A DNA stretch of 64,000 bases from Candidatus Poribacteria bacterium (GCA_965242965.1 OZ251518.1:352001-416000); one strand, 5' to 3'; shown: positions 10,209-34,542, counted from the first letter of the stretch. Numbers and translations: made by a program. Notes: a model not told the origin generated them from the sequence alone.

Positions 10209-10312
10209 GATGAGCCTCCCATCTAGCGAATTTATCGCGATTTTGCGGTTTTCCAAACGGCATTTTATTTAGATTAACTTAATTTGTAAAAAATGTCAAG
10301 TTTTTTTGTCTG

Positions 10313-11019: not shown

Positions 11020-14000
11020 CTATTCCCGCTTTTTCAACGCACCGAACGTCGTCAGCATCCGATTCGATGCGGAAACAGGACCCGGCAACAACCGCGTCAC
11101 TAATGTTTCCCGCTTACCATCAAACGCAACTTCCTCAATCTGATAGTAATACTCAATCCCCGGCTTCGCAGACGTATCGGTAAACGTGTAGGTTTGACGT
11201 TCACCTGTCGTGCCGGCACCGGCGATTAAGGCAGGATTCAAGAGCGTGAAACCACTCCCGCGCTTTTCGCTACGGCGCAGATTGAACCCGGCGTTGTCTA
11301 CCTCGGATTCGGTTGTCCATGTCAAGACGACAGCACCAACTTCGGTGCGCGTCAGCGAGAAACTTGATAACTCAACAGGTAATGCACCGCCTTCACGATG
11401 CCCCGGTGTGCCGATGTCCTCAGCATGGCCGTAATGGAGAGACTCATCAAACGGCTTGATGCGCGATGCCAACACCCAACTCGCACGCTTTCGTCCCGGC
11501 AGCGCAACACCTTTGTCGTAACGCCGAATGATGGAACTCCGAGAACCTTCCTCAAAACTCAACGGTAATGCCCAGGCCGGTGCATCATCCGAACGCCGAT
11601 CGCTGTCCCTATTCCCGACTTCGTCTACCAGATTCCCGTTCCTATCGGCGAGTTGCAGGTAGAACCCTTCGGTACTTAAGAAGGTATCGCGCGCCCTTTT
11701 TATGCGCAGATTCTTCTCATGCAGTGCAAGCAGATCGTAAATTCTGTCCGCCGGTAGATACGAATCCGACGAGGCACGCGCAGGTCCGGCCACGATGAGC
11801 AACGTTTGATTCGGTTGAATCACTTTTTCGCTGAGCGTCAACGTGACAATCGGGCGGCCGACTAAATCCTCGGAATCGACATTCTGGATCTCCAACTCCC
11901 AACGGTTGAGATTGATAGCATCCGTTTTGGAATTGTTGTAGAGTTCGATCCATTGCGGCAGTGTGCGCCCGCCGGAATCCACCATGATTTCACTGAAGGT
12001 GATGCTGCCTTTCGGCGTGGCGGCTTCCGTTTTCACTGCACCATTCGGATACCCCGGTGTGCCGGAAGTGGCGGCAGACTCTGTCACCTTCCTGTCATAG
12101 CCGATACCCGTGAATGCCGATTCTGCCCACGCATCTCGATGATACCCGACGATATCCGCCTTCGCGCGCTGCCAGACCTTGCCTGAGCCGAGGGCATCTT
12201 CAGTGTCACCACCGGGTGCCTCACGCACTTGCAAGGGCCAGACATGCGTATCATAATCGCCTGTCTGTTCACGGACAAACGCATCGGTGTCACTGCCGCC
12301 GCCACCGGCGACATCCACGAACGCCTCGTTCAGACCGAGTTTCTCTTTGGCATTCCGCAGAATCAACAGGAATTTTCCATCATCTGGCAGGGACAACTCC
12401 GATTTGACGAGATACAGGTGCGGTGAGCCTTTCTTCTCCACGGCGGCCGTGGCGGCATCATTCCCACCGGCGAGAGACGTTTTGTCCGGTGACGTATTCA
12501 CAAGCAGCAACAGCCCATTCGCCGGCACGCTCACATCTTCTACAAAAGCAATCAGGGAGGTATCTTCCTTCTTGCCATCCTGCACGATGCTGAGCTCCCA
12601 GTCCTTTAACGAGACTGCAGATCCTGTCACATTGCGGAGTTCCAACCAGTCATCAGCATCGTCACTGCCGTTGCCGAGTTCGTTGAAGACAATAGGACTC
12701 CGCGGCACATCCGTGGCGGCAGCCTTCGGCTCGGACTCCTCAGGAAGATAGATAAGGTTGATAGGCACCTCTGTCCGAGGGGCCAGCTCCTGGTCAGATT
12801 CACCCTGCAATTGGCCTTGCCCTGGCGGTGGCGTTGTCACCAAGCCTTCGCCGGACCCTTTCGCCGGTGCACCGGTGCCCGATAATTGGCTGCCTGTCTC
12901 GTCCACCAGCCGCGTGTCACTCGGCACGGTTAACCCAATCTCCTCCGCGACGCGCAGCGACTGCGCAACATCATTTGCCGCTACCGTATACGCAAACGTC
13001 ACTTTTGTCGAATTCGCGTCTTCCTGAGCACTCCAGATAGCGTGCCGTGCATTTGCCGGCACCTCTTCGCCCAGATACAGCGTCAGATACGGCGGATCCT
13101 CGCCTACATAGCGGAGACCTTCCCGATTATACGTCACTTCCACCTCAATCTTCTCTCCGACGGTATACACACCCGCCGCAGGCTCAACTATCTCCGGTGT
13201 TTCTACTACCTGGAACGGGATGTTCACCGGCACCGTCAACGTATTTGAGGCAAGGCTATCGTTACGCGCGATGTCCTGTGTTGCACCCGCTGGCAACCGG
13301 ATAGCCACGTCTCCCTGAAAACCGAGAGGCGGCGTAATCGTGGCTTTGTAGACGAGGAACGACCCGGAGTTCTTGGCATGCCCTGGCTTGTGGGCTGAAC
13401 CCGCCGGCTGCCCCGGTCTGTCCCTAGTCGGCCACTGATTGGTGGCACGATTGTCCAACCCGATATAGATAGTCTCAACTTGCCACTCGGATCTCACGAC
13501 ATCCGCACCGGTAATCTCCACATCATCGCCGGTAAAACTTTCCCCGACTTCGTCGGCTATCGCGCCCTCCGGCCTGTGATGGTTGAAAAAGCGGAATTCA
13601 ACATCAAAGGGACCTGTCTGGACATCGCTTTCCGTGACAGCCTCACGTAAATCGTCCGCTGTCATCATGGGGATTGCGGTATACGTCGCATCCAGATTCA
13701 CCGCGGCAATCCGTCTATCCTCTATGTGCGTGACACCATTTTTTATGATGCCGGGAATCCAGACTGTCGCAGGGATGGTATCCACCAGATACTTGATGAT
13801 GCCGAAAGCGTATGCGTCACTGTATCTTTCCACAGGCAGGTGGATGAGATTAGTTGCTGCAACCTTGATATCCGGATCGTCTGTGAGGTTGGGGATGCCG
13901 GTAAAAAACGCCCAAAGTTGCCGCTCAAGATCCGCCCCGGTATCAAACTCGTTGCCAATCAAATCTGTTATAATACGCGGGTTGTCAACAGGCGTTCCTC

Positions 14001-15207
14001 TGCGCCATTCCGTATGAGTATTCGGCCGAAATGCTTCTGTACCAAGTTCTATGGCACCGAAAGCGCGATGCCCTTCGGTCTTCAACTTGCCGGCTTCATC
14101 ATAAAACCACCGAAACGTTTTCACGCCGCCCTCAAGCCGAAACGTTAACTCGTCTGTTCCCGTGCCGGACACGTAGATACACTCCGTAAGAGCAGCATCT
14201 AGTTTCGCATAAAACGAGGGAGGATTGTTGGTATCCACCTGCACCGCTTCACTAAACTTCACCTTCACTTCAAACGGATCGCCGGCTCGCAAATAGAATG
14301 CCCGCGGGCTATTGGCCAACGTCACCGCGTTCGCGCCGGTTGGAAGGGCCCAACCGTGGTCGTGCACGAGTTCGCAGGCAGCAGTGTAGGTGTCACCGTA
14401 TTTTCGGTGATCCTCTAGGCACCCTTGACGCACCTGATGGTAGCGGGACGGCCCTGACTGCCCGGCAGGCGGCGCGTTTATCGTCAGGCTTTCCACCGTA
14501 GGATAGGCTGAGACTCTGCCATCTATCTTGGGGTAGTGGATAGTGCCGGTATAGGTAGCAGCTCGTACGGCCCCCGAACCCCACCTAACGAAAGGTTGGC
14601 TATTAGTCGGCGGATTCCCATAGCGAAGCCAACCGCCATCGTCGTCCCTGTCGCCTGACCGCACTTTATAGAGGTATACCACGGTATACGAATACGGTAA
14701 AGTCACAGGCACAGGCCTGTTTGGGTTTTTAAGTTCAAGATTGCGGCTCGTTCCCAGCGTTTTCATCCACGACGGAGGCGAGGTACCGGTTGGACCACCA
14801 ATCTCCCAATTCTCTAAAGATATTACTGATACGTGCCCGACTGTGGCCTGACCAGTACCGGTTACGGTCATTTTAAAGGCGATTGCGATGATGTCGCCAG
14901 CGTTTGCTGTAACAGGGTTTGCACCGTTGTGCGCTTCCATTGCGGTGATTTCAACACCACCATTCTCAAGGCTCAGCGTCCCCTCCGTAAAATCGTCGAC
15001 CCTCGCCAGTTTGCCGTCAATCTGATTACCACTCCACGTTACCCAGTTCTCTGGGTCTGGCGTATTATCCTCGTTGGGTAGTACCATGTCAGGATTCACA
15101 TAAATCCTGAGGTTATTAATTTGATATTGTGCCTGCGCTTCGGGCCCTGTTCCGATGAGAATTACCAAGGCGGCAAGCAGCAAACCTATTGGAAAAAGCA
15201 ATTTCAT
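11020..15207 (-). CDS. Large secreted/surface protein (1395 aa) with Ig-like and two lamin-tail-like domains and a C-terminal LPVEL...LTTFGALK tail
   Basis: Signal peptide MKLLFPIGLLLAALVILIG..AQA; 'IVFNELG..DWLELRN' and 'ITFSEIM..QWIELYN' LTD-like motifs; GGAGGA SD before ATG 15207. Confidence 0.8.
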   Translation of the reverse strand: MKLLFPIGLLLAALVILIGTGPEAQAQYQINNLRIYVNPDMVLPNEDNTPDPENWVTWSGNQIDGKLARVDDFTEGTLSLENGGVEITAMEAHNGANPVTANAGDIIAIAFKMTVTGTGQATVGHVSVISLENWEIGGPTGTSPPSWMKTLGTSRNLELKNPNRPVPVTLPYSYTVVYLYKVRSGDRDDDGGWLRYGNPPTNSQPFVRWGSGAVRAATYTGTIHYPKIDGRVSAYPTVESLTINAPPAGQSGPSRYHQVRQGCLEDHRKYGDTYTAACELVHDHGWALPTGANAVTLANSPRAFYLRAGDPFEVKVKFSEAVQVDTNNPPSFYAKLDAALTECIYVSGTGTDELTFRLEGGVKTFRWFYDEAGKLKTEGHRAFGAIELGTEAFRPNTHTEWRRGTPVDNPRIITDLIGNEFDTGADLERQLWAFFTGIPNLTDDPDIKVAATNLIHLPVERYSDAYAFGIIKYLVDTIPATVWIPGIIKNGVTHIEDRRIAAVNLDATYTAIPMMTADDLREAVTESDVQTGPFDVEFRFFNHHRPEGAIADEVGESFTGDDVEITGADVVRSEWQVETIYIGLDNRATNQWPTRDRPGQPAGSAHKPGHAKNSGSFLVYKATITPPLGFQGDVAIRLPAGATQDIARNDSLASNTLTVPVNIPFQVVETPEIVEPAAGVYTVGEKIEVEVTYNREGLRYVGEDPPYLTLYLGEEVPANARHAIWSAQEDANSTKVTFAYTVAANDVAQSLRVAEEIGLTVPSDTRLVDETGSQLSGTGAPAKGSGEGLVTTPPPGQGQLQGESDQELAPRTEVPINLIYLPEESEPKAAATDVPRSPIVFNELGNGSDDADDWLELRNVTGSAVSLKDWELSIVQDGKKEDTSLIAFVEDVSVPANGLLLLVNTSPDKTSLAGGNDAATAAVEKKGSPHLYLVKSELSLPDDGKFLLILRNAKEKLGLNEAFVDVAGGGGSDTDAFVREQTGDYDTHVWPLQVREAPGGDTEDALGSGKVWQRAKADIVGYHRDAWAESAFTGIGYDRKVTESAATSGTPGYPNGAVKTEAATPKGSITFSEIMVDSGGRTLPQWIELYNNSKTDAINLNRWELEIQNVDSEDLVGRPIVTLTLSEKVIQPNQTLLIVAGPARASSDSYLPADRIYDLLALHEKNLRIKRARDTFLSTEGFYLQLADRNGNLVDEVGNRDSDRRSDDAPAWALPLSFEEGSRSSIIRRYDKGVALPGRKRASWVLASRIKPFDESLHYGHAEDIGTPGHREGGALPVELSSFSLTRTEVGAVVLTWTTESEVDNAGFNLRRSEKRGSGFTLLNPALIAGAGTTGERQTYTFTDTSAKPGIEYYYQIEEVAFDGKRETLVTRLLPGPVSASNRMLTTFGALKKRE

Positions 15208-15276
15208 TACAAATTCCTCCATCTTTGGATGTCGGGGTATCCTTCTCACACCGGTGGAGAAGGCGCGCGTTCTCGA

Positions 15277-15319
15277 AGAAAAACAGGGTAACCGTGGGCG
15301 GGCGCCCACGGTTATCCTG
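15277..15319 (-). terminator. Intrinsic terminator/attenuator in the 5' leader of the surface-protein gene
   Basis: CAGGATAACCGTGGGCG-CC-CGCCCACGGTTACCCTG then TTTTTCTT, about 70 nt upstream of ATG 15207. Confidence 0.7.
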
Positions 15320-16725: not shown

Positions 16726-17895
16726 TTAAAACGCCGCCTCCAACAACCCCAACATATCCTCCTCCGTGCAAGAGCGCGGGTTGGATTTATAACAGTGATC
16801 CAACATAGAATCCGCGGCGAGTTTGGGGAGACGTTCGCGAGGCAAACCGCAGGCACCAAGTCCCTCCGGCATCCGTAATTCCTCGTTCAATGCGCGGATT
16901 TCGTCAATAGCGGCGCGCGCAGCGGCTTCCGCAGACATGCCAGCGGTGTTTACGCCTAATGCATCGGCGACATCGGCGTATTTGTCCATCGCAAAGGAGA
17001 AGTTGAATTCCATCACGGGCGGCAACAGAATCGCGTTGGCGACACCGTGGGGTATCGGTGCTTCAGTGGATAACTGATGCGCGATAGAATGGACTGCGCC
17101 GAGTCCCTTCTGAAAAGCGAACGCGCCCATGCTCGCGCCGAGCAACATCTCGGTTCTCGCCGTGACATCGTCGCCGTGATGATACGCCTTTCGGATGTTC
17201 GCGCCGAGCATCTTCAGTGCCTGCAATGCGACACCTTCGGAGATAGGGTGATACCTCGTGGCGACATACGCTTCGATGCCGTGCGTGATGGCATCCATGC
17301 CGGTGGCGGCGGTGAGCGGCATCGGCATGCCTACCGTTAACCCCGGGTCGAGGAGAGAGATGTTTGACATATTTAACGGCGTAACGATGGCGCGTTTTCG
17401 CCATCTATCTGTCGTGTTTCGCGAGGTATCGGTGATAATGGCACCTTGCGAGACCTCGCTGCCGGTGCCAGCTGTCGTCGGGATGCAGATGAGCGGCGGC
17501 ATGTTATCGCGGATGCGTTCCCTCCCGCCGACATCGACGTAGTAAGGCTCCAACGGCGGTTCGTGCGTTGTCAAAATGCGAATGGCTTTCGCTGCGTCCA
17601 TCACACTTCCGCCGCCGATGGCGATGATGACATCGCATGCGGCGCGCTTCCACAACGCCGCCCCTTCTTCCGTGCTGATGTCTGTCGGATTCGGTTCAAT
17701 TTCGGTGTAGTCGGCATAAGGGATGTTGGCATCTTCCAACGGCGCGATGGCTTTCGCGAGGATGCCCGCGCGGCGGACACCGGCATCGCTTACCACCAGC
17801 GGTTTTCGGCCACCGAGGTGCTTGACATGCGCCGCTAGGGATTCAATTGCACCCTCGCCACATTCAATGCGCGGCGGTAAAAAGTAGCTATGCAT
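16726..17895 (-). CDS. Iron-containing alcohol dehydrogenase
   Basis: GGGSVMDAAK, IPTTAGTGSE, GMDAITHGIEAY, HSIAH and HGVANAILLP motifs; start overlaps the upstream stop. Confidence 0.93.
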   Translation of the reverse strand: MHSYFLPPRIECGEGAIESLAAHVKHLGGRKPLVVSDAGVRRAGILAKAIAPLEDANIPYADYTEIEPNPTDISTEEGAALWKRAACDVIIAIGGGSVMDAAKAIRILTTHEPPLEPYYVDVGGRERIRDNMPPLICIPTTAGTGSEVSQGAIITDTSRNTTDRWRKRAIVTPLNMSNISLLDPGLTVGMPMPLTAATGMDAITHGIEAYVATRYHPISEGVALQALKMLGANIRKAYHHGDDVTARTEMLLGASMGAFAFQKGLGAVHSIAHQLSTEAPIPHGVANAILLPPVMEFNFSFAMDKYADVADALGVNTAGMSAEAAARAAIDEIRALNEELRMPEGLGACGLPRERLPKLAADSMLDHCYKSNPRSCTEEDMLGLLEAAF

Positions 17896-19834
17896 GCTTC
17901 TCCTGTGCCAGATTTTTCTGGACTTCCTCTACTAAGGCGTTTAAATGCACGTGCCGGAAGAATTCAGACAGGCGTTGCTGTTTGAGTTCTTTCGGGAACA
18001 AAACGAAATTTGCGCACCGGCTTTCGGCGATGGCAAGCACTTCGCGGTATGCCCGGCTCGTTGCGTATCCGACAGCGAAGACGTATCGTTTGCCATATTT
18101 TTGGAGATAGTCGATCAGGCGCGTCGCGCAAAGTTGTATCTGCGCGCTATTCTGGGGAGCGAGTTGGAAATCGTATCGGACGAGTTGTTCCTCTTCCTCG
18201 AACTCTTCGGGGACGGGGCCGTAGAGTCCGGATAGCGTTACCTTGTGAATTCGCTGATGCTTTTCGGGGAACGCCGTTTGCAGTTTTTTCGCCATTAACT
18301 TATGCGTTCGTGAAAGCGAATACGGCTTCTGTCCGGCGCACGGAATAACTAATAGCATCTCCATCTCCGCGGGTGGTTGATAGTCCGCTGGGACGCTGAA
18401 ATCGTCGGGGGTATAGTCTAGTGAGATAGTCGTTTCCGCGTCTTCACGGATGAGCGTGGTTGAATTCTCCGCGGGACCGTAAGGGAAAAGTTCCAATTGA
18501 TTCGGGTTCCGCGCCGCCTTTTCAGCGGCCATCGGCACCTGCACCAAGGTCCGGGTTAGGCGCGTCGCCAATTCAGAGTCTCTCGTGGAGAGCCATTGGA
18601 CTGCATCTCGGATGCTGCGGCCGCGTTGAAACCTTTCGACGTGTCGCGTTAACCCCTCAATTGCATCGTCAGCCTGAATTGCCTCGCGCATATCTGCGAG
18701 GAGTTGCGTCTCCATCTCAAAATTGTGAAGAGAGAGGAGCGCGTAGTATTCGCTTTTAAACTTGCCGGTTGAGGTGGCTTGGTAACTCTTCTCCTCCATA
18801 AACCCCTGCTGCATTTCGTCAAGCGTGATAGATTGGCAGACGTAACATTCGCACGTGAAAGCGTCCATCTCCATAATCTTCAGTTTCTTGAGCGTTTGGG
18901 GATGCGAATAGGCGAGGCTGCGCGAGGCTTGGACGTAAGACGAACTATCAAAAGTGTCCACCCCCATGTAGGCGAGGATGGGTGTCAGGATGCCGGATAC
19001 TCCGAACGCGTGGATGGGGGTATTATCGCGCCGGGCGGCGGGAATTGCCTCGACAACGCCGTTGAGGAGTTCCATGACTGCGGAATCGTTTTTGCCGCGC
19101 AGCGGGACAAGTGAACCGACTGCCAATCCAAAAGAGGGGAGCAATTCGCCGATTTTCTCAAAGACGTTGTCAACGTAACCTTGAATGTCTTTGCCGGATT
19201 GCCCGTGGCAGCAGACATAGAGATAGGGCATATCGGTTTTGCCGCTCAGCCGTTGCGCGACGCGGTGCGCGTTAGCAAAACTCCGCGCCATTCGTTCTTC
19301 TGCTTCGGCGCGCGCCAAGTTCGGGGGGATAGGATAGTCCAACGTCGCGACGATGTCGCCCTCAAAATCGAGTTGTATTTCGAGGATATCGTCAGCCTCT
19401 GTTTCTTTGTGGATGCCGAATTGGGATAAATCTAACCCCGTGTTGTAAAGCAGTTTGAAGCCGCCCGAATCCAAAAAGAGCACGCCTTGGTAATCGCCGT
19501 TCTGTTCGAGGTAATGCTCCCGCATCGACTTTTTCCGCCAATTCGCGAGATATTTCCCGGTGAAGTTGAAGTCGAGAAAGTGCAGGACCTGGGATAGCGT
19601 TGGGGTATCGCGTTGCATGAAGTTGCGGAGGATGTATTTCCAAACCCCGCCGCCGCGCGCGCTCGTGCCGGTGAGGAAATTGATGACAGGGTAGAGAATC
19701 GGTGTTTCCAATTTTCGGTTTGCCGTGCGAAATTGCAATTCGCCGATGCGTCCGTGTTCCGTGGCGGTGACGGTGCGGAAGATAGTGGGCGTGCTGTCGG
19801 TTTTTGTATCGCGGGCGTTTTCGTGTGTGTGCAT
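17888..19834 (-). CDS. TGT-family protein (arcTGT-like catalytic and Zn domains) fused to an ArcS/DUF5591-like domain
   Basis: LDSGGF, LDYP, IHAFG, GVDTFDSSSY and CECYVC...HN motifs; C-terminal PCAGQKPYSLSRTH. Confidence 0.82.
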   Translation of the reverse strand: MHTHENARDTKTDSTPTIFRTVTATEHGRIGELQFRTANRKLETPILYPVINFLTGTSARGGGVWKYILRNFMQRDTPTLSQVLHFLDFNFTGKYLANWRKKSMREHYLEQNGDYQGVLFLDSGGFKLLYNTGLDLSQFGIHKETEADDILEIQLDFEGDIVATLDYPIPPNLARAEAEERMARSFANAHRVAQRLSGKTDMPYLYVCCHGQSGKDIQGYVDNVFEKIGELLPSFGLAVGSLVPLRGKNDSAVMELLNGVVEAIPAARRDNTPIHAFGVSGILTPILAYMGVDTFDSSSYVQASRSLAYSHPQTLKKLKIMEMDAFTCECYVCQSITLDEMQQGFMEEKSYQATSTGKFKSEYYALLSLHNFEMETQLLADMREAIQADDAIEGLTRHVERFQRGRSIRDAVQWLSTRDSELATRLTRTLVQVPMAAEKAARNPNQLELFPYGPAENSTTLIREDAETTISLDYTPDDFSVPADYQPPAEMEMLLVIPCAGQKPYSLSRTHKLMAKKLQTAFPEKHQRIHKVTLSGLYGPVPEEFEEEEQLVRYDFQLAPQNSAQIQLCATRLIDYLQKYGKRYVFAVGYATSRAYREVLAIAESRCANFVLFPKELKQQRLSEFFRHVHLNALVEEVQKNLAQEKHA

Positions 19835-19879
19835 AAGTTGTTTTTGGTTCCTGTCTGTCGAGGGTTATAGATTATTAAT

Positions 19880-19908
19880 ATGATACCACAAACGCGAATT
19901 TCGTGCAA
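19880..19908 (-). promoter_or_regulatory. Sigma70-like promoter of the TGT-like gene
   Basis: TTGCAC-N17-TATCAT with TG extension. Confidence 0.55.
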
Positions 19909-19909
19909 A

Positions 19910-20500
19910 GAAAAAAACGCCTCGCTTTCATCGTAGGCGGCGAAAATCCCCCTTTCACCGTAGGGCGAGGGCCTGTCCCTCGCCATGCCTCGGTCTACCG
20001 AACGTTCGCGGGGGACAGGCCCCCGCGCTACGGAAAAAAACGCCTCCCTGTCACCGTAGGGCGAGGGCCTGTCCCTCGCCATGCCTCGGTCTACCGAACG
20101 ATCGCGGGGGCCTGTCCCCCGCGCTACGGTAAAAAACGGTCCTTGAGGCTCTGTAGGTCAGGATCGCCTGATCCTGACCTGTTTGTGATCAGGCGATCAC
20201 AAACTACAGATGGGGAAACACACATCGGGACGATGAGATCGCGGGGGACAGGCCCCCGCACTACGATAAAAAAACGCCTTCCCTTCACGTAGGGCGAGGG
20301 CCTGTCCCTCGCCATGCCTCGGTCTACCGAACGATCGCGGGGGACAGGCCCCCGCACTACGATAAAAAAACGGGGCTTGAGCCATCGCGGGGGACAGGCC
20401 CCCGCGCTACGGGAACATCGAGACCGGGAGGTCTCGCCTACCGGAAATTGAGCCCCGAGGTCTCGCCTACCGGACACATCGGAATTATGAAAACCCTCAG
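19910..20500. mobile_element. REP-like array flanked by a 36-bp direct repeat
   Basis: 19874-19909 and 20501-20536 are 34/36 identical; right end TTATGAAAACCCTC. Confidence 0.75.
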
Positions 20501-20527
20501 ATTAATATGATACCACAAACGCAAATT

Positions 20528-23500
20528 TCATGCAAATTTGATAAACGCCGCGCTGCAAATGACCTTGGGAGGGACACGGACGGACTGAATAGGTGGCACC
20601 TCGTCGCTTGCCAACGCCGACATATTGTAGCGGTGATAGAGGGTTTTCAACGCCGTTAACAACTCTTCGCCCGTGAGTTCGGCGCGATAGAGGCGGCTGA
20701 TTTCGCGTTTGAGACGTTCTGTTAAGCGGCCGCGGAACGCTCGTTCAAGCGTCCCTATCGCGCGCTCTTCCGAGGTGCTGGCCAGCATCCTTAACTCCCG
20801 CAAAATGTATCGTTGCGCGCGGGACAACGTCTGTTTTGGAAAGGCGTTTCGCGTCCGACAGACTTCCGCTGCAGACGCTTTTTGGACTTGGGTGACGCGG
20901 GCGTTGTGATGGGCCGGAAGCGGTTTGCCTTGCAATTCGGCATCGCACTGGAGCAAGCGAAGGATTTCGGCAACATCGGTAGTCCGTTCAACGCCGTTTT
21001 CATCAAGCAGGACAAGCCGTCTTTGCTGTTCCTGTTCCCCGCGACAGCAGACGTAAGTGCCTTCTACTTCGGCGGGGATGCCGGTGCGAATGCCATCTCT
21101 TAACTCGGCGATGCGCTGATATTCCGCTGGGTTTTGCCGTCTCAATTGCCGCAGCAACTCTTCCGCCTCACTTAATCCGAAGCCCGGTTCTTCGGTTTCT
21201 TCTTCCAAGAGGCTGAGTTGTTCGCCGTTCTGTTCATAAATGGCATACATCGCTTTTTCGTTGAGTTGCTCGGTGTTGTCAAGGATTGCCGCGTCTTCAC
21301 CGATGGTATCGTGGATTTCCTGAATGCGGCATTGGAGTTTCTCGCGTAGCCCGAGGTTGCGTTCAATTCCCAATTCCGGCAGGAAATTGAACCCGTGGAT
21401 TTCGTCAAATTGACTGCCAATCCTATCAATGCGGCCGAAGCGTTGGATTAAGCGCACCGGATTCCAGTGTAAATCGTAGTTGATGAGCATGCCGCAATCT
21501 TGCAGGTTCAATCCCTCGGCGAGGACATCTGTGGCGATGAGCGTCTCTATCTCGGTTTCATCCGACTTCAAGCGATGTTGATTGGCGTTCGGTGCGAACC
21601 GCTCGACGACGCGCCGCTTCCTATCGCTGCCGTGGCTATGGATAACCTCCGTATTCGCTGTGTGCAGGTTTCGGTAGAGATAGTTTGCAGTATCAATATA
21701 TTGTGTGAAGATGAGCCGTTTTTTGCCCTGCAGCGATGGCGATGCCAGCAACGCTTTCAACTTCTGAAGTTTCGCATCCTGCGCAGGCGTGATATGCTGA
21801 ACCTTCTCGAAGATCTGGTTTAGAATACCGATGTCGTTCTGAATCGCCGCGCGAAGTTCAGGGACGTTGAAGTCACGGATGTCGTATTGCGCGGAGGCTT
21901 CGCGGCGTGCTTCCAGAAACTGTGCAATGTCCCGTTCTTCCGGGCTGATGTCGGTTTCATCAGAAGTGCTCGCTTCATAGAGGATTTTCTGGGCATCGTC
22001 ACCGGCTGGCACGATCCCATTTTCAAGCGCGCGGAGGAAATCGACGTGGACGTTATAGAACCGGGAGATAGTTGTCTTGAAGGCGTAAACACTGGATTCA
22101 AACCGTTTGAAGAGCAGAATACGCATGAGGCCCCGCAGGTTTCTACCCGCGCTCTGCAAATCCTGATACGGCGGGACATTCTGACTCTCCTCCTTCACAT
22201 AGTGCCAGAGGCCATACCGTGCATAAGTCAACTGCGCAGCGGTATCCGATTTACCGAGGTAATCGCGAATCTGTGCATAGAGCCCCTGATAGGTATCTTC
22301 AATGCTGTATTCAACCGTCTTGAGGGTGCGCTTCGGAAAGAACTGCTTGGTATCGCCGACGCGGACATAGGCGCGGCGTTCGCGGTTCAGGTAATCGGTG
22401 AATTGCGTTGCATCTACGGGTTCATCTGTCTCGGCATCGTAACCGTACCAACGCAAGATGTGGTTTCGCGTTCGGCGGATGAGAATGTGTTGTAAAAGCG
22501 TCGGGAGGCTCCGTTCCCCGTTCTCAATCAAGCGGAAGTATTCGCGAAGATTTGGCGCGTCCACCGGCAACTGCGTTTCGTCGTTGAGATGGAAAAGTTT
22601 GAGTTGGTGGTAGATATCCCACGCGCTTTTATTGCGCGGTGTCGCTGTGAGGAAGCAGCACTTCTTATCGCCTGTTGTGAGGAATTCCTGCAAGACGCGG
22701 TAGCGTTGCGTAGTGGCATTTCGGAAGTTGTGGCTTTCGTCAACGAGGACAAAATCGCAGTGTCGATAGCGAATATCTTCAAAGAGCAATTCCCGCGCGT
22801 TTTCTTCCCCGCTACTTAAAAGCCCGGTGGAGAGGATTTGCGCGCCGAGGCGGTAGAGGACGTTATAGGATTCCCACATGGACATAAGCGCGGGGGGACA
22901 GAGGATGAGCGGACGCGCCTGTTCAACTTGTTCAAAGTGCTTGACAATCGCCGAACCGATGTAACTTTTGCCGAGCCCGACGACATCGGAGATGAAGACA
23001 CCGCCGTATGCGTCAATAATCCGAATGGCTTGGGAAACGGCTACCTGCTGAAAATCCGCGAGTTGCGCTGTCAATTCGTCTGCCGGTGCGATGCGGCTCT
23101 CATCCGTTTCTACCCTATCTTTTACCAATTCGTAGAGCGTCTTCATGTAGATGTCATAAGGACGAACAAGCGCGAGGGCCCAGGAGGTTTGCATCTCGTC
23201 CATCAACGCCTTGTCAAAATCCTCTGCTTCGTCCCATAACGCGTCAAACCAGTCGCGGAGTTGCACCTGATTGGCGTTGCCGTGCACGACGACGTTCAAT
23301 TCGGTGTTGCTGGTTAACCCTGCCAAGGTAAGATTCGATGAGCCGACGATGGAGATGCCGGATTCATATCCCGCGTTTTTGCCATAATCGAAAATATACG
23401 CCTTGGCGTGGAAACGCTCCTTCGTGTAAACCCTGACTTTCAGTTGTCCGCTAGCAATCATCTCCACGAGAGTTTTGATGAGTTGCGCCGAGTCATCTGT

Positions 23501-23839
23501 CTGCGGCATGAATTCCATGCAGGCGCGGAGGTTTTGCGCTGTGTCACCGACGCGTGCCTTGCGTTCAACGCCGCGTGAATAGCGGCGCGCCGACTGAATC
23601 TCGCCTACAGATGCCAATTGTCGATATCCTTCGGCGAGCTGCTCAATCGTCTCGCGTGTACTCGTATTCCCGATGAGGAGACGGAGCTCGGTGACGTTTT
23701 GCAGTGCTTCCGCGATGCCGGTAAAGCCGGTGAGGAAAAAATATCCGACAGCGAAGCGGGCGCGCTCTGTCTCCTCTAACATGAGAGTGACGTTGTCGAT
23801 GAGTTTTTCGGTGCGATTGTCGATAATGTCTTGTGGCAT
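20528..23839 (-). CDS. PLD-nuclease + SNF2-like helicase (restriction-type subunit)
   Basis: FHAKAYIFD...GSSNLT (PLD HKD), DVVGLGKS, DESHNFRN, LTATP, TDVLAEGLNLQ and QRFGRIDRIG motifs. Confidence 0.88.
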   Translation of the reverse strand: MPQDIIDNRTEKLIDNVTLMLEETERARFAVGYFFLTGFTGIAEALQNVTELRLLIGNTSTRETIEQLAEGYRQLASVGEIQSARRYSRGVERKARVGDTAQNLRACMEFMPQTDDSAQLIKTLVEMIASGQLKVRVYTKERFHAKAYIFDYGKNAGYESGISIVGSSNLTLAGLTSNTELNVVVHGNANQVQLRDWFDALWDEAEDFDKALMDEMQTSWALALVRPYDIYMKTLYELVKDRVETDESRIAPADELTAQLADFQQVAVSQAIRIIDAYGGVFISDVVGLGKSYIGSAIVKHFEQVEQARPLILCPPALMSMWESYNVLYRLGAQILSTGLLSSGEENARELLFEDIRYRHCDFVLVDESHNFRNATTQRYRVLQEFLTTGDKKCCFLTATPRNKSAWDIYHQLKLFHLNDETQLPVDAPNLREYFRLIENGERSLPTLLQHILIRRTRNHILRWYGYDAETDEPVDATQFTDYLNRERRAYVRVGDTKQFFPKRTLKTVEYSIEDTYQGLYAQIRDYLGKSDTAAQLTYARYGLWHYVKEESQNVPPYQDLQSAGRNLRGLMRILLFKRFESSVYAFKTTISRFYNVHVDFLRALENGIVPAGDDAQKILYEASTSDETDISPEERDIAQFLEARREASAQYDIRDFNVPELRAAIQNDIGILNQIFEKVQHITPAQDAKLQKLKALLASPSLQGKKRLIFTQYIDTANYLYRNLHTANTEVIHSHGSDRKRRVVERFAPNANQHRLKSDETEIETLIATDVLAEGLNLQDCGMLINYDLHWNPVRLIQRFGRIDRIGSQFDEIHGFNFLPELGIERNLGLREKLQCRIQEIHDTIGEDAAILDNTEQLNEKAMYAIYEQNGEQLSLLEEETEEPGFGLSEAEELLRQLRRQNPAEYQRIAELRDGIRTGIPAEVEGTYVCCRGEQEQQRRLVLLDENGVERTTDVAEILRLLQCDAELQGKPLPAHHNARVTQVQKASAAEVCRTRNAFPKQTLSRAQRYILRELRMLASTSEERAIGTLERAFRGRLTERLKREISRLYRAELTGEELLTALKTLYHRYNMSALASDEVPPIQSVRVPPKVICSAAFIKFA

Positions 23840-23849
23840 AGAACCTGCC

Positions 23850-25978
23850 TTATTTCAGGAGCTCTAATAGTGCATTTATACCTTTTACGCCGAGCACAGA
23901 CAAAACTGTTGCAAAAGCGATGCTGACAATTCCGCCAAGGACGATCTTCCAGGGAGTCAGCGCGCCCTTCAATGCCTCAACGGATTTTTCAGTGTTCACC
24001 AACTTTTCGTTCATATTGTCTAGTTGCACATCCCGTTTTGCGTCGCGTTCGGCACTAGCGGCGAGATGAGCTTCTGTCTTGGCTTGGAATTTCCCAATCT
24101 GCCGGAGGGACTCGTCAATGCTGCCTAAGCGTGCATCGCGTGCAGTGTCGCGTTCCGCACTGGCGGCGAGGAGTGCTTCTGTCTTGGCTTGGAATTCGCC
24201 AATCTGCCGGAGGGATTCGTCAATGCTGCCTAAGCGTGCATCGCGTGCAGTGTCGCGTTCCGCACCGGCGTTGAGGAGTGCTTCTGTCTTGGCTTGGAAT
24301 TTCCCAATCTGCCGGAGGGATTCGTCAATGTTGCCTAAGCGTGCATCGCGTGCAGTGTCGCGTTCCGCACCGGCGTTGAGGAGTGCCTCTGTTTTCGCCT
24401 GGAATTTCGCGATGTCATCTAAGCGCGCGTCCCGTTCGGCATCGCGCGCTGCACTGGCATTGAGGAGTGCCTCTGTTTTCGCTTGGAATTCCCCAATCTG
24501 TTGGAATAACTCCCCGAGGTGTTCCAAGCGTGCATCGTGTGCAGCGTCGCGTTCCGCACCGGCGTTGAGGAGTGCCTCTGTTTTCGCTTGGAATTTCGCG
24601 ATGTCGTCTAAGCGTGCATCCCATTCCGCGCCGCGTTCTGCACTAGCGGTGAGGAGTGCCTCTGTCTTCGTTTGGAATTCGCCAATCTGTTGGAACAACC
24701 CCTCAAGGTGTTTCAAACGTGCATCGCGCTCGGTATCGCGTTCGGCACTGGCGGTGAGGAGTGCTTCTGTCTTGGCTTGGAATTCGCCAATCTGCCGGAG
24801 GGACTCGTCAATGCGGACGAAGTGTGCATCGCGTTCGGCATCGCGTTCGGCACTGGCGGCGAGATGGGCCTCTGTCTTGGCTTGGAATTTCGCGATGTCC
24901 TCTAAGCGTGCATCCCATTCCGCGCCGCGTGCTGCACTAGCGTTGAGGAGTGCCTCGGTCTTGGTTTGGAATTCGCCAATCTGTTGGAACAACCCCTCAA
25001 GGTGTTTCAAACGGGCATCGCGCTCGGTATCGCGTTCGGCACTGGCGTGAGGAGTGCTTCTGTCTTTGCTTGGAATTCCCCAATCTGCCGGAGGGACTCG
25101 TCAATGCGACCGAAGTGTGCATCGCGTGCAGCCTCGCGTTCTGCACTCGCGGCGAGATGGGCCTCTGTTTTCGCTTGGAATTTCGCGATGTCATCTAAGC
25201 GTGCATCCCATTCCGCGCCGCGTGCTGCACTAGCGTTGAGGAGTGCCTCTGTCTTGGCTTGGAATTTCGCGATGTCATCTAAGCGTGCATCCCGTGCAGC
25301 GTCGCGTTCGGCACTGGCGTTGAGGAGTGCCTCGGTCCTGGTTTGGAATTCCCCAATCTGTTGGAACAACCCCTCAAGGTGTTCCACTCGGGCATCGCGT
25401 TCGGTGTCGCGCGCTGCACTGGCGGCGAGATGGGCCTCTGTCTTCACTTGGAATTCTCCGATTTGGCGGAGGGACTCGTCAATGCGACCGAAGTGTGCAT
25501 CGCGTTCGGTGTCGCGCGCTGCACTGGCGTTGAGGAGTGCCTCAGTCTTGGTTTGAAATTCGCCAATCTGTTGGAACAACCCCTCAAGGTGTTCCACTCG
25601 GGCATCGCGTTCGGTGTCGCGCGCTGCACTAGCGGTGAGATGAGCCTCTGTCTGCTCTTGAAACGCCGCTATCCGCTTGAACAATTCCTCAAGACTATCT
25701 AACCGCGTATCGCGTTTGGCATCTAATGCCTCAACTGCAGTCAATCGTGCATGCGTTTGGGTCTGGAGTTCTACAACGCGTTGGAGCAATTCCTCAGTGC
25801 CGTCCAGTCGTGCGTCGCGCGCTGCGTCGCGCTCAGCACTGGCAACGAGATACGCATCTCTTTTGACATCCAGTTCAGCACTACGTTCTTGTATCTTCTC
25901 GATCCTCTCCAACCGAGGAATGCTTTCGTGACGTGCCGGCTCCGAAGCATTTTTAGGTTGATTATCGGTAGTTTTCAT
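23850..25978 (-). CDS. Tandem-repeat coiled-coil protein with C-terminal TM anchor, split by a 1-bp frameshift near 25047 (about 709 aa if joined)
   Basis: ORFs 25007-25978 and 23850-25010 carry the same 35/28-aa repeats; ACTGGCGTGAGG lacks one base relative to sibling repeats; hydrophobic C-terminus. Confidence 0.75.
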
Positions 25979-26092
25979 CGGTTTCTCCTTGCAAATTTAT
26001 TGTTAAGTATAAGTTTACCATACTTCAATAGGTTTGCGCAAGGATTTTTTTACAATCGATGCACCGCACGCGTGTTTCGCCTGTAATCAAAT

Positions 26093-26519
26093 TAGGGTGT
26101 TTCATAAATCCGTGTAGGAGAAACCTCCAGGTCCTGATATCGGCCGCGCAAGCCAACGCTCGCGGGGGACAGGCCCCCGCGCTACGAAAAAAACTTCTCT
26201 TAGGTCCGTAGGACCTTAATGTCTATAGCACGCGCGTCTGTGAAGAACCCTAAGGTCCTTTAGGTCCTTAATAGATTTTGCCTTACCGCGTGGTTTTGAT
26301 TAAGGACCTAAAGGACCTTGAAAAGGGACCTGCACGTTTTTCTATAGACATATAGGACCTAAAGGACCTAAAACGCGATTCTTGATGATGGAGATCGCGG
26401 GGGACAGGCCCCCGCGCTACGGGAACATCGAGACCAGGAGGTCTCTCCTACCGGGGAGTCGAGACCGGGAGGGCGCGCCTACGGAGAGAAATCGAGACCG
26501 GGAGGTCTCTCCTACCGGC
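26093..26519. mobile_element. Composite REP/MITE-like element with a 37-bp flanking duplication
   Basis: Left end TAGGGTGTTTCATAA; TAGGTCCTTTAGGTCC modules; 26031-26067 identical to 26520-26556. Confidence 0.75.
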
Positions 26520-26538
26520 GGTTTGCGCAAGGATTTTT

Positions 26539-26847
26539 TTACAATCGATGCACCGCGACGAACTCCGGCGTGGCTCCCTCTTCCCAAACGGCAGACGTCC
26601 GCCGGTCTTTTTTGCCAACACCGAAAATAACGAATACGTCAGGGGCAACCGAACGCCTGTTTTCGGGGGTGCCGTAATAGATGAGCAAATTTCCGGACAC
26701 ATACACATCGGGCGCGTGCCGGAAGTGGTGCTCCAACGTCTGAATAAGGGACATCATTACTCTTCGGTGTTTATCGGTTTCTGCCATAGGTTTTCCATCT
26801 GATTCGGGTAGGGTGAGTGTCGGCGCAGAGCGTATTTGTTGCAACAT
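26539..26847 (-). pseudogene. Truncated Uma2-family endonuclease
   Basis: PESDGKPMAE..H, VSGNLLIYY, VAPDVFVIFGV and WEEG.PEFV motifs, then an abrupt stop at 102 aa before the E-x-x-S segment. Confidence 0.75.
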
Positions 26848-26955
26848 CGTTCCATCTCCTTAGGTGAAGAAATGCGCGCATCCCGCGCAGCATCATTACG
26901 ATTCATCAGATAGTATACCACATTTTCCTGAAAAATCAAACCTTTTCTTTCGGTT

Positions 26956-29900
26956 TCAACTCCGCGCCTTCTTAAGCCTAGTTTCAACGAGATTGATAAC
27001 CGCCTCGTAAACGCCATCACGCTCGCCTTGCGTCAATTCCAAGATGTCAAAGATGACGTTGTCAATCGCGATGCGCGCCGGTGAAGGCGATAAAACGTCC
27101 CATTCTTCGGATGCGAGGAGGGATGCATTTACCCCCCCCCTCAAAATTCATGTCTGTTAAGTTAGGGTTAACACATCGTAGCTCTCCCAAATCCGAGGTT
27201 TGGAGTTCTAACTCCCCATATCCTAGGTTTGAGCGACCGTTCACGTTCACCATCAACTGGAAGAAAGTAGAATTGAGGGAGAAACAGAGAGGTATCCTCA
27301 ACTCAAGTGCGCATTGGAGTTCCATAAACTTGCCAGTCACATAACACCCCTCACTGGCATACAATGTTTTTGCCGTTGAACGCATCCGGTGCGCAAAACT
27401 CATATACGGAGGCGGGCGTTTGCCCACATCATACCATCGCCGTCTAGATCGGATGCTCGGCCGCTGAGGCAGTTTCTGGCTTTCACCCGATTCAATGTAT
27501 GCCAACGCAGCGGTGCCTCTTAAGGCTTCTCTCTCCTTTTGACACAGAAAGAGTTGATGTGGTGATTGTTCGGGGCGAATCAACAGGCTCTCAGTGACTC
27601 TCCTGTCGTTGACAATCGGGTGTAAAAACTCTGGCTCAATATGCCACGCCGAAATCGTCTCCGCATCAAGGATGAAAAACTGGTTTGCCCCGCTCATGAT
27701 TCCTCGCCGAATCTGAGCGATGTCGCCGACACGGACGAGTTTATCCGAGCCTTTTTCTAGTAATGTCCAATAGATGTCGGGAGCGCGCAGATACTTCGCG
27801 CCCCATTTGTTTCCGGTATACTTCGTCTTTGCATCCATTCCGGCGGCTAAAAGTGCATCCTGCGAGAGAAGGTGAATTCGATATTCAGGCAGAGCATTCC
27901 GCTGGATTTCGGTTTCGATTTCGTAAAAGATGACAGGATCCAAAATAGCCTCAAACGGTTCGGTAAAGTTAACAAACCGCACAATGTCTTGCAAACCTGA
28001 TGCGCTATCTCTAACCGGGGCGGAGATGAGACAAATAGCAGTGTTGATATTTACGGCTTTGAAGGAACGTCGTGCCGCGTTGTCCAAAACCAGTTTGAGA
28101 TGACACCGCTTAAGGAGGAATTCCTGCAAATCTTTGCCGAAGTCCGCATCTAACCACGATCTGGATGTGATAGTGCAGAAGGTTCCTTTGGGATTTAGCA
28201 ACGAGAGTCCGTGAAAGTAGAAGTAGACGTAGAGATCGCTGTTGCCATCTAGTTTATGCTTCACGGCAGACGCGGGGTTTTCCTTCGTATCCTTCTCCGG
28301 TTGATACCCGAAGAATGCAGGGAACGCCTGATAAACGGAACGCGCCAACTTGGCTTTATACGCCTTCGTGTTAGCGGGTGTAACCGCGTCTCGGGCTAGC
28401 GTCGGGTCTGTGAGTTTTTTCGTTGAAACGTAAGGCGGGTTTTCTATCACGATGTCAAAACCACCATACTGTTTGAAAATCTCAACGAAGGCAATGTCCC
28501 ACACGAAAGGTGGAACTGCATCTGACGTAAGGGCATGCTGGGCACGTTGGAGGTTGTTGAGATTCGCCTGTTGAAGTGCCAACTCCTGTTGCTTTTGCCG
28601 AGTTGCAAGATCTAATTGCGCTGCCTGGGGTTTCTCAATCCCGTCAAGCGTCAGTTGTTCAGCCGGATCTTCAAGCCATTCCTGTAAACCTGCAATGCCT
28701 TCCAAAATTTGGCTTTCCTGCGACTGCAGTGTCTCCCGAAAGAGCAAGTTCTCGGCGCGTTGCACATCCGCTTTCTCACGATATTTCCGCTCACGTTCGT
28801 TGTGATAAAACTTCAGTTTCTCTGTCTGGTGGAATACGATTTTGCGCGAGATGTCAGTCGGCACGCCGCTGCCCAACGCGCGCGTCTGCGCGAGGTTCAT
28901 CCCACCGATGTCCTGCACCAGACTATCGCCGTGACGAATGTTAAACGAAAAATCAGGCAGCAAGGGCTCCTCGCGAATCTGCAGTTCCGCGGTGGAAATC
29001 TCTGCCTCAATGATGAGCGCGAGCCAGAGGCGTAACTCGGCAACTTTGCATGCCCACGGCATCACGTCTACGCCGTAGAGATTCTTGCCGATAATCGCCT
29101 TGCGGCGTTCAAACCTTGAGGTAACAGATGCACCGAGGTGCCGTGCGGCGCGTTCCCCCAGGTCATCGAGAATATGGAGCATGCCGACGAGAAACGAACC
29201 GCTGCCACACGCCGGATCCAACACCGTGAGACGGTTCAGATGCGTCGCGATATCACCCCACTGCGCGGCGAGGTGGGCATCGGCATCTTCCTTCTCTGTT
29301 TCATCGAACGTAAAGAGTGCGGCGTAAAATTGATGCTTATGCGCCTCACCGATGTGATTTGCGAGGTTATCTACGAGCGCGAGACGGCACATCATATCTA
29401 TCTCGATGCGCGGCGTGTAGAAGATGCCGGCATCGCCGCGTTCATCGGTTTCAGCGGAGACACTGACGAGACTCTCGTAGACTTTGCCGATCATCTCGGG
29501 GTCTACGGCGACTTCCTGTTCCAGCGGGGTATCCTCGGCGATGGTGAAGTTATATCCCTCGAAGAACTGGAAGATGTCGCGCCATAAATCATCGGGAATC
29601 GTGGTGGCATACTCGGTATCCCATTCGTTTTCTCGGAATAAGCCGCCGTTGAGATAGGGCGCGTGCTGAAGCGTTTCGCGGATGTTGTCAGGAAAGTAAC
29701 GATATCCGCCGTGAAACTTCTGATTGAAAGCGGCGAAGAAGAGGACGTTGAGCCACTTTGCCACGAAGGTATCCGCTGGTTGCGTTGCGTTTTGATACGC
29801 CTGCCAAAACGTGTGCAGGAAATCGGTGTCGTTTCCGAGCCACCGTTTTCGCTGGATGAAATAGAGGAAGAGGCAGCGGCTGAGGAATTGTTGGGCTGCA

Positions 29901-30565
29901 TCGTGCGCCCACTTTTTATCAGCGGTTTGCGTTTCCAACTCGGTTTGGAGGTTTCTGAAGACGCGCTGATAGTCGGCGAAAAACTGCGCTGTCACGGCAT
30001 CGACATCGAAGGCGGCATCGTGCTGTTTGGTAATTTGCAGAGGTGTCAGCAGCTCTGGATTTGGGAAGAGGCTCTCCTGTTGGCCGTCAATGGCTATCGT
30101 CGCCAGATCGAGCATTGCGATACGTTCGGCGGCGGTGCGGAGTTTTTCATCGGGCGCGACAGTGATGCGCCGGAATCGGTGGCGTGCCTTGTGTTTCTTG
30201 CTTGCCTCGCGGACGAGTGTGACGTTGACGAAGTGCCAGTGGTCTTGCGCAATATTGCTAAAGATGTAGAGCGCGTGCGGGAAGCGCGTCTGCAAGTGCG
30301 CGATGACGCGGCGTTCGGCGGTCTTGCGGGGTGTTTCGGTATTGAGGCGCGCGTATATGATGTGAAAGTCGTTATCCCTACCCCCGGCGGCAAAGCGTCG
30401 CGGTGCCTCGGCGAGGCAGTCGGCGATGGCTTCCGGGATGTTCTCAATCGGTTCATCGATGCGGTGATAATTGAGTTCTACCCAAAAGAGTTCGCGCAGG
30501 GGTTCGATGCCGCGGAGGTTTTGTAGCAGAGTTAAGATGCGTTCGGTGTTTTCGGGTGTTGGCAT
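26956..30565 (-). CDS. Large N6-adenine DNA methyltransferase (Eco57I-like); natural C-terminus out of frame at G9 tract 27132-27140
   Basis: YLNGGLF, GKVYESL, GIFYTP, LDPACGSGSFL and ENPPY motifs; in-frame ORF stops at 27062, helical tail lies in the frame ending 26956. Confidence 0.85.
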
Positions 30566-34242: not shown

Positions 34243-34311
34243 ATCTCCAACTCCGAGTTTCTAATTTCTTGTCTTAAGGTAGACAGTTTGGTAGAGACCT
34301 CATCAGTTGTT

Positions 34312-34542
34312 TTAGTTCCACTTCCATCCGGCTTGTTCATAGATACTTCGCACCGTCCCGATCGGTATGTCTTTGTTTGGATGTGGAACAGATACCGTGC
34401 CTGACTTGTCGGTGTGCCTGAATTGATGGTGAGATCCTTTGATGCGATGTAGGAACCATCCTTCGCTTTCAAGCTGCTTTATCATGCGTCGCGAGTCTCG
34501 GAGACGTTTCCAACTGGGCCGCTTCGATTTGCGATGTTTCAT
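34312..34542 (-). CDS. hicA: HicA-family toxin (copy 1)
   Basis: L..EGW...RIKGSHHQFRH....VSVPHP.KDIP.GT..SI..QAG. Confidence 0.88.
   Translation of the reverse strand: MKHRKSKRPSWKRLRDSRRMIKQLESEGWFLHRIKGSHHQFRHTDKSGTVSVPHPNKDIPIGTVRSIYEQAGWKWN

Follow-up and report, generated by a model that had tools for sequence, protein, structure and literature searches.

What does a bacterium do with a gene that joins an archaeal-style transglycosylase to an archaeosine synthase domain in one polypeptide, and does the product act on DNA or on RNA? The question is raised by positions 17888-19834, minus strand, of a 64,000-nucleotide stretch of a Candidatus Poribacteria genome (GCA_965242965.1 OZ251518.1:352001-416000), hereafter the window, which belongs to a metagenome-assembled genome (MAG) of 5.7 Mb in two contigs. 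A first-pass annotation had described the gene as an arcTGT-like transglycosylase (TGT) fused to an ArcS-motif domain without a PUA domain, and had read it as an insert-and-modify enzyme for an archaeosine-like base, possibly acting on DNA. The observation is confirmed here and the interpretation is partly supported: we propose, with confidence about evenly balanced between belief and doubt, a one-chain enzyme that would insert preQ0 and convert its nitrile, with DNA as the likeliest target. Modification of DNA by 7-deazaguanines is known from islands encoding DpdA, DpdB and DpdC and from phages.

The interval is occupied by exactly one open reading frame (ORF) of 648 amino acids (aa), P0001, hereafter the fusion, which is laid out as follows.

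17888..19834, minus strand: the TGT + DUF5591 fusion gene P0001, 648 aa (ORF, Pfam, AlphaFold2 model)
18650..19753, minus strand: TGT catalytic domain, residues 28-395, with D122, D166, H210-G211, HAFG, the D296 nucleophile position and the Zn site (Pfam, alignment to 1iq8, family invariants, Foldseek)
18437..18544, minus strand: disordered inter-domain linker, residues 431-466 (model confidence; variable in length or missing in paralogous copies)
18020..18385, minus strand: DUF5591/ArcS C1 core, residues 484-605, with PC-x3-KPY-x2-S-x2-H at 498-511 and LSGLYGPVP at 534-542 (Pfam, PDB 2q07 AF0587, hhalign, BFVD)

The Pfam assignments are TGT (PF01702, residues 28-395, E 1.1e-21, 77.8 bits against a cut-off of 26.3) and DUF5591 (PF17884, the ArcS C1 core, residues 484-605, E 5.8e-13, 49.4 bits against a cut-off of 26), and neither C2, PUA nor any further Pfam domain was found at E<=0.01, so that the architecture stands as first described. 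All of the motifs named in the first-pass annotation lie within the reading frame, namely DSGGF (residues 122-126), DYP (166-168), CHG (209-211), HAFG (275-278), DTFDS (293-297), CECYVC (328-333), HNF (370-372) and the ArcS motif PC-x3-KPY-x2-S-x2-H (498-511, PCAGQKPYSLSRTH). Alignment to the arcTGT structure 1iq8 shows that the catalytic Asp pair D122/D296, the base-recognition residue D166 and the Zn site C328/C330/C333/H370 are all present. Among the NCBIfam models, the general TGT model TIGR00449 scores 80.1 bits against a cut-off of 47.6, which places the protein in the superfamily, whereas each equivalog score is well under its own cut-off (TgtA TIGR00432, 92 bits against 350; ArcS NF040592, 80.7 against 440; bacterial Tgt TIGR00430, 44.5 against 306.75). 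The AlphaFold2 model, built with 35 family sequences, is confident (predicted local distance difference test, pLDDT, 88.6; predicted template modelling score 0.88) and consists of two folded domains joined by the disordered linker (pLDDT <50). In Foldseek searches the N-terminal domain matched arcTGT 1iq8 with an E-value of 1e-20, and bacterial and eukaryal TGT chains with template modelling scores of 0.75-0.81 (target-length normalised), in agreement with the TIM-barrel TGT fold.

The fusion belongs to a diverse and unnamed family, whose members are labelled in the data sources as tRNA ribosyltransferase or as 'DUF5591 domain-containing'. A homologue search of 5.8 billion proteins returned 445 matches at E<=1e-3 among 8000 candidates scored, and all 120 matches listed carry TGT together with DUF5591 at 55-97% identity, which excludes a chance ORF. 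Among 1.84 billion cluster representatives, searched exhaustively, 570 matched at E<=1e-3, 99 of them at E<=1e-30; many are full-length proteins of 600-700 aa with 30-45% identity, whereas shorter entries with the N-terminal or the C-terminal part only may be fragments. Across 35 aligned fusion proteins with 28-67% identity to P0001, the invariant positions comprise D122, S123, G125, D166, P168, H275, G278, G291, D296, C330, C333, H370 and N371 in the TGT part and P504, Y505, G539, P542 and P614 in the C-terminal part, while H210, G211, C328, C499, K503 and S508 are conserved in at least 90% and the terminal His of the ArcS motif is frequent, not universal. This conservation indicates that both active centres are under selection. 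Two variants, P0185 (880 aa) and P0215 (847 aa), bear a second, degenerate DUF5591-like repeat after the first, in which the Cys-x3-Lys is missing.

The relationship of the TGT domain to known transglycosylases was assessed on two maximum-likelihood trees, the second with nine near-duplicate rows of TGT paralogues from metagenome islands (see below) removed; full-length arcTGT and phage DpdA are in neither tree. The N-domains of the 35 fusions make up a single group with an approximate likelihood-ratio support (SH-aLRT) of 85, and the island TGT paralogues are its sister group (89). The fusion N-domains stand apart from six bacterial Tgt proteins, the host's own included (99-100), and from three canonical Poribacteria DpdAs (100). 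Thus the grouping with canonical bacterial Tgt that the first-pass annotation had named as evidence against its idea was seen on neither tree, and by the TIGR00430 score and clade P0001 does not class as a bacterial queuine Tgt.

The best match of the N-domain in both sequence and fold is arcTGT (TgtA; PDB 1iq8), with which it shares the catalytic Asp residues, a GxxVP-type pocket and the Zn site. The pocket motif GSLVP of the fusion aligns with GGVVP of 1iq8, as opposed to bacterial GGLxVGE; V197/V198 have been reported as determinants of preQ0 versus preQ1 specificity (PMC5699537). Unlike arcTGT, which ends in a tRNA-binding C1-C2-PUA region, the fusion has DUF5591 at its C-terminus, and at the xQG position arcTGT has Gln where the fusion has His.

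ArcS (TgtA2, NF040592) is the nearest precedent for the arrangement as such, since it also combines a TGT-like N-domain and, after it, a C1 core that bears the PC-x3-KPY-x2-S-x2-H motif (motif definition from PMC5699537 and PMC10516641). Our comparison rests on a single bona fide ArcS (P0290, 443.5 bits against the NF040592 cut-off of 440), which has the PC-x3-KPY motif, a C-terminal PUA-like region and the Zn-site cysteines, and which has lost DSGG (SSST at this position) and DxP and reads VDILD. Because the fusion keeps a complete set of transglycosylase residues (DSGG, DxP, HxFG and DTFDS), it is not simply a truncated ArcS and its TGT domain is not of the degenerate ArcS type. What is new relative to ArcS is therefore the retention of the catalytic residues combined with the loss of C2/PUA, whereas the juxtaposition of TGT-like domain and C1 core already exists in ArcS. 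A profile search of 14 control genomes found DUF5591 only in three archaea, Haloferax included.

By the NF041059 model, clade and motifs the fusion likewise does not class as a bacterial DpdA: where it has DSGGF and CHG, three aligned canonical Poribacteria DpdAs have GDCGAF and AQG, and these also have VDH. His210 of the CHG motif, which was compared because of His181 of DpdA (PMC10164549), was rejected as a DpdA-like mark, as all three of these DpdAs have Gln there; a His at this position also occurs in short archaeal TGTs, in the TGT paralogues of the islands and in the host's third TGT-like gene.

The C-domain links the fusion to the second enzyme of the Dpd pathway. In the Dpd system, DpdA and DpdB insert preQ0, DpdC makes dADG (2'-deoxy-7-amido-7-deazaguanosine), and DpdD-K restrict. 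It has been reported that DpdC converts preQ0-DNA to ADG-DNA (PMC10164549), the DpdC family being assigned to DUF6884 (PMC11888242) or DUF328 (PMC12839542). The fusion C-domain aligns with island DUF6884 proteins in hhalign (probability 79%, E 1.6e-5) with C-x3-K and LS[GA]xxG in register, which makes it homologous to the DpdC-type fold; according to the Pfam curators, DUF6884 has two motifs of these types and a YaaA-like DNA-binding fold (PMC11701544).

The closest functional precedent comes from Vibrio phage nt-1, whose DpdA2 together with the DUF5591-only ArcS2 is reported to produce dPreQ0 and then dG+ (2'-deoxyarchaeosine), the latter in E. coli plasmid DNA (PMC10516641, Table 3), that is, a transglycosylase and a PUA-less DUF5591 core present as two proteins there and as one chain here. 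A six-frame genome search with PF17884 gave 44.3 bits for nt-1 VPFG_00169 and 52.5 bits for the query region. In Foldseek searches of BFVD with the fusion, both nt-1 proteins were matched (E 1.2e-9 and 7.1e-5), and the matches included phage TGT-like proteins, nt-1 ArcS2, a YaaA and a DUF6884 protein; nt-1 R9TGF0 (464 aa, the same length as the unannotated VPFG_00171 ORF beside ArcS2) is presumably DpdA2. The nt-1 ArcS2 motif is degenerate, C-x3-RPY, and pairwise similarity to the fusion is marginal (20% identity, E 0.016), and the Pfam TGT model, which gives 77.8 bits for P0001, did not detect the nt-1 and 9g DpdA proteins. A phage origin of the fusion was considered and rejected, as 50,697 phage records yielded no tblastn match and IMG/VR gave only two weak TGT-only relatives (24-27% identity). 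As for published accounts, in the literature covered DUF5591 is named only in the phage study (PMC10516641) and its preprint, and dG+ in DNA is reported only for phages. No description of a cellular TGT-DUF5591 fusion was found in the literature on DpdA together with ArcS, on archaeosine synthase and defence, or on DpdA from 2023 onward, although the supplements of the BREX-related capture (BRC), GATOR-GC and phage papers may list members.

The genomic context of the wider family was surveyed in 80 metagenome loci with 30-64% identity to the fusion, which form 60 clusters at 90% identity, 46 of them with at least four other ORFs. The calling of neighbouring ORFs was mechanical and BLAST served to cluster them; related loci do not count as independent, and locus taxonomy is mostly lacking. 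Dpd-like or DNA-type neighbours occur in 38 of the 60 clusters, including a DpdJ-like helicase (23), a GHKL ATPase (17), a second TGT paralogue (11), a DpdK-like phospholipase D (PLD) protein (11), a large P-loop protein (11) and a DpdC-like DUF6884 protein (10); queC/D/E or the preQ0 transporter YhhQ accompany 18 clusters, and 18 clusters have neither kind of marker. The labels DpdJ-like and DpdK-like are used because the scores are under the cut-offs (182 against 800 and 45.8 against 100 bits). Two layouts recur. The first is QueC< QueE< QueD< fusion> DUF6884> TGT(415 aa)> GHKL> (e.g., L087 7876-15234); this clade includes one cluster with the label Halobacteriaceae, and if such archaea already carry a tRNA ArcS, their PUA-less fusion would be an extra paralogue. 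The second, DpdJ-like> DpdK-like> fusion> YhhQ> (L110, L111 5248-12275, L138, L141), lies inside the query's own subclade. The likeness to bacterial Dpd thus extends to DpdJ-like, DpdK-like, queCDE and YhhQ neighbours; in place of the ParB-like DpdB of those systems, which was not seen among the annotated recurrent neighbours of the metagenome relatives, the fusion islands show a GHKL ATPase. Neither a radical SAM partner of the RaSEA type (no dedicated search was made) nor tailoring or biosynthetic gene cluster-like genes recur next to the fusion family.

In some metagenome islands large P-loop proteins accompany a PglZ-like (Phosphodiest) protein, and in some NurA-HerA occurs together with a zeta-toxin-like kinase. 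In this they resemble the BRC systems, archaeal and bacterial defence islands that recruit TGT with PglZ, BrxC-like and HerA proteins (PMC12839542, NAR 2026). The BRC paper reports that no DpdC homologue was detected, and the term ArcS has no occurrence in its main text (PMC12839542).

The precursor pathway is present in the host. Of the genome checks proposed in the first-pass annotation, those for queCDE and for a separate canonical tgt were positive: the genome encodes QueC, QueE (by tblastn), a tandem QueD/PTPS and QueF, because of which preQ0 is available, and a canonical tgt lies elsewhere (532.6 bits). The fusion is the only DUF5591 gene in this genome. A third TGT-like gene, outside the window (400 aa, G000:C1:2241832-2243031; L006 1090-2292, minus strand), has DSGG, DHP, LHG and NTVDS and has lost the cysteines of the Zn site, with W and G where the fusion has C330 and C333. 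It directly follows a gene for a 393-aa ATPase that weakly resembles BrxD, and its place on the tree is with short archaeal TGTs.

In the mechanism we favour, the N-terminal domain would swap guanine for preQ0 from the cell's own queD/E/C pathway by standard double displacement, with D296 as the nucleophile, D122 as acid/base, D166 in base recognition and the Zn site in a structural role. The DUF5591 domain would then act on the nitrile of the inserted preQ0 through the C499-x3-K503 centre. The product may be an amidine of the archaeosine type (dG+), which would fit the canonical ArcS motif; a related amide or an amine adduct is also conceivable. This insert-then-convert order is suggested because both reaction types are established: double displacement with two Asp residues has been described for TGT and DpdA (PMC10164549), and a preQ0 nitrile already in the polymer is converted to an amide by DpdC (PMC10164549) and to an amidine by ArcS/ArcS2 (PMC5699537, PMC10516641). 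The fusion would be a one-chain equivalent of phage DpdA2+ArcS2 or of bacterial DpdA+DpdC. Three points favour DNA as the target: the gene contexts of the family, the lack of RNA-binding domains and the precedent of phage DpdA2+ArcS2. In Poribacteria the fusion would act as a 'solo' (orphan) modification enzyme and not as part of a linked restriction system.

A bolder version, which we offer tentatively and regard as rather doubtful, is that bacterial DpdA and phage DpdA1-4 are joined by a third and independent lineage of DNA-guanine transglycosylases, the fusions, which would be DpdB-independent and install dG+ in cellular DNA by a single polypeptide. They would then represent the modification half of compact helicase/PLD + fusion + YhhQ cassettes in many bacteria and haloarchaea, the restriction half having been lost in Poribacteria, where a vertically kept orphan mark would remain.

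The query locus itself was compared with other Poribacteria. The surroundings of the fusion in the window are the following.

16726..17895, minus strand: Fe-dependent alcohol dehydrogenase (Pfam, NCBIfam), whose ATG overlaps the fusion stop by 8 nt
19874..20536, no strand assigned: intergenic array whose GC-rich palindromic units measure 93-96 nt, with a 36-nt direct repeat on its flanks
20528..23839, minus strand: defence-type PLD(HKD)-SNF2 helicase, 1103 aa (Pfam, NCBIfam; PADLOC 'HKD+Snf2', E 1.8e-83)
23850-25010 and 25007-25978, minus strand: paralogous pair of proteins (386 and 323 aa) of unknown family, part of a defence-like island
26539-26847, minus strand: short ORF similar to Uma2-family proteins, in the same island
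27062-30565, minus strand: type IIG-like Eco57I/MmeI methyltransferase, 1167 aa, in the same island

The overlap of 8 nt makes co-transcription of the fusion with the alcohol dehydrogenase probable. In the neighbourhood survey of Poribacteria, which covers 23 loci (10 from family f1 and 13 from families f2/f3), the dehydrogenase is directly downstream of the fusion in all ten f1 loci and in none of the 13 f2/f3 loci; the pairing also occurs in related metagenome contigs (L063, L122, L134), and no functional link is apparent. Among the f2/f3 loci, an N6/N4 DNA methyltransferase gene is located directly upstream of the fusion in eight of 13, and a MutH-like endonuclease occurs in three. Upstream of the query gene, the palindromic array spans ~590 bp, and its unit gives 3724 blastn high-scoring segment pairs genome-wide, 156 of at least 80 nt; the 36-nt direct repeat, which includes a promoter-like TTTGCA-18-TATCAT, is found in two copies bracketing the array and has no further copy in the genome. 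The array looks, from its sequence, like an insertion of the repetitive extragenic palindrome (REP) or miniature inverted-repeat transposable element (MITE) type that duplicated the promoter region of the fusion. Rfam gave no match in the window for a preQ1 riboswitch or any other RNA element.

Further upstream, the genes from PLD-SNF2 through the IIG methyltransferase (20528-30565, minus strand; 23850..30565 without the SNF2 gene) form a defence-like island. PLD-SNF2 was tried as a general restriction partner and rejected, as it adjoins the fusion only in the three loci of genus g1 (3/3). Elsewhere in the window, on the minus strand, three consecutive genes (33514-36247; 242, 237 and 232 aa) each encode duplicated HicB-like antitoxin domains, and a 1429-aa protein (11020-15309) has lamin-tail (LTD) and Ig-like domains; a DUF1800 gene (8814-10256) lies downstream of the latter on its strand.

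Within the phylum, the fusion was found in 54 of 176 genomes with a patchy distribution (none of 40 in g5, 12 of 65 in g6 and 16 of 20 in g15); the genomic loci closest to the query come from Candidatus Poribacteria MAGs at 92, 73 and 68% identity. Several genomes (G031, G045, G055 and others) have a second paralogous copy missing most of the linker, which matches query residues 8-437 and 464-644, and in G031 one of the copies (L049) is broken up into two ORFs. Canonical DpdA was identified by NF041059 (414-474 bits; loci L146-L149 in G064, G023, G021 and G055) in 20 of the 176 Poribacteria, the host genome not being among them. It co-occurs with the fusion in at least G021, G023 and G055, so that two lineages of deazaguanine transglycosylases coexist in the phylum. 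The Poribacteria fusion clade itself is 'solo'.

Several observations weigh against a DNA-modifying role. The hint of a DNA substrate in the first-pass annotation gained comparative support from relatives at 30-44% identity, which reside in Dpd-like 7-deazaguanine islands, and gained none from the query locus or its closest relatives, where neither Dpd restriction genes nor queCDE were seen near the fusion: linked markers of this type accompany 42 of the 60 metagenome clusters, and none of the Dpd or preQ0 markers was found at the nine loci nearest the query (44-60% identity), some of which have housekeeping neighbours (ABC transporter, sigma-70, Lon). Apart from one weak GHKL match, a tblastn search of the host genome with the island neighbour proteins retrieved nothing but the housekeeping QueC and QueE, and no Dpd restriction genes. 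Canonical DpdA is reported to require the ATPase DpdB (PMC10164549); in the window the fusion has no ATPase gene next to it, and the genome was not searched with a DpdB model. Nor is PLD-SNF2 a conserved partner, since in other genomes distances of 70 kb to megabases separate its full-length orthologues from the fusion, and orthologues are also present in fusion-less genomes, g5 included; it is thus probably not an obligate partner. The bacterial DpdA model NF041059 had no match to P0001 at E<=0.01, and the family profile scores 118 bits against arcTGT, ~45 against bacterial TGTs and 23.2 against DpdA (7ui4) in PDB (for the other structures of interest, AF0587, 2q07, the DUF5591 structure, scores 51.6 bits and Cap10 25.8), so that by hidden Markov model score the TGT domain is nearer to the tRNA enzymes than to DpdA. 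Finally, the identity of the fusion falls with taxonomic distance, from 87-92% within the genus through 64-71% within the family and 55-61% within the order to 49% within the class, which gives the inheritance a vertical look; this pattern fits both a housekeeping role and an orphan DNA mark.

These points feed the explanation that survives best beside a DNA target, namely that the same two-step chemistry takes place on RNA, in a bacterial preQ0- or archaeosine-like enzyme for tRNA or rRNA that recognizes its substrate independently of PUA. We hold this to be unlikely. Because the Poribacteria clade is solo and vertical-looking, an RNA target keeps some probability, and the top TIGR00432 and 1iq8 scores of the TGT domain, the conserved positions and metabolic or housekeeping neighbours of the solo genes in Poribacteria and the nearest relatives, the agreement of identity with taxonomy and the missing linked restriction genes of the host genome all speak for such an enzyme. 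It is harder to reconcile with the missing C2/PUA module, with a gene that is dispensable in most of the phylum (entirely so in g5), with the Dpd-like DNA islands of the wider family and with the canonical Tgt/QueF route to tRNA that the host genome already encodes.

A division of labour of the ArcS kind, in which the TGT domain would only bind and flip a preQ0 nucleotide placed by another transglycosylase and DUF5591 alone would be catalytic, seems improbable to us. ArcS, to judge by the P0290 architecture, uses its TGT-like domain in this way, and in 11 of the 60 relative clusters a second TGT (~415 aa), a GHKL ATPase and a DpdC-like gene stand beside the fusion. However, the transglycosylase residues are invariant in the fusions whereas the DSGG Asp is lost in the examined ArcS, and the remaining 49 clusters have no second TGT in the flank. 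In the host, the only other non-canonical TGT is the L006 gene, and it was rejected as the inserting partner: it does not co-vary with the fusion among the 176 genomes, being found in 21 of them, including genomes of the fusion-less g5, and being absent from the two fusion-bearing relatives in the same genus. Action on a free base or small molecule, for instance formation of the G+ base from preQ0 before insertion or of a 7-deazapurine metabolite, we regard as highly improbable. It is true that the order of steps is described as unsettled even for Gat-QueC systems (PMC6884629) and that gene clusters for 7-deazapurine secondary metabolites are known (bioRxiv 10.64898/2026.04.15.718813). For ArcS and DpdC, however, the reported substrate is preQ0 that is part of the polymer (PMC5699537, PMC10164549), a complete polymer-type TGT domain is fused to DUF5591 and no tailoring genes recur nearby.

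If the preferred reading of a one-chain enzyme that inserts preQ0 and converts it in DNA is correct, the fusion would represent a minimal, portable one-gene system for writing archaeosine-like bases and a new transglycosylase lineage for annotation, whose members are now labelled as tRNA enzymes. It would also join ArcS and DpdC as one nitrile-activating fold. For the organism, the role of an orphan hypermodified base in an uncultivated sponge symbiont would become a question in its own right, and, should the more tentative third-lineage proposal also hold, archaeosine would be a bacterial epigenetic or protective DNA base on a symbiont chromosome.

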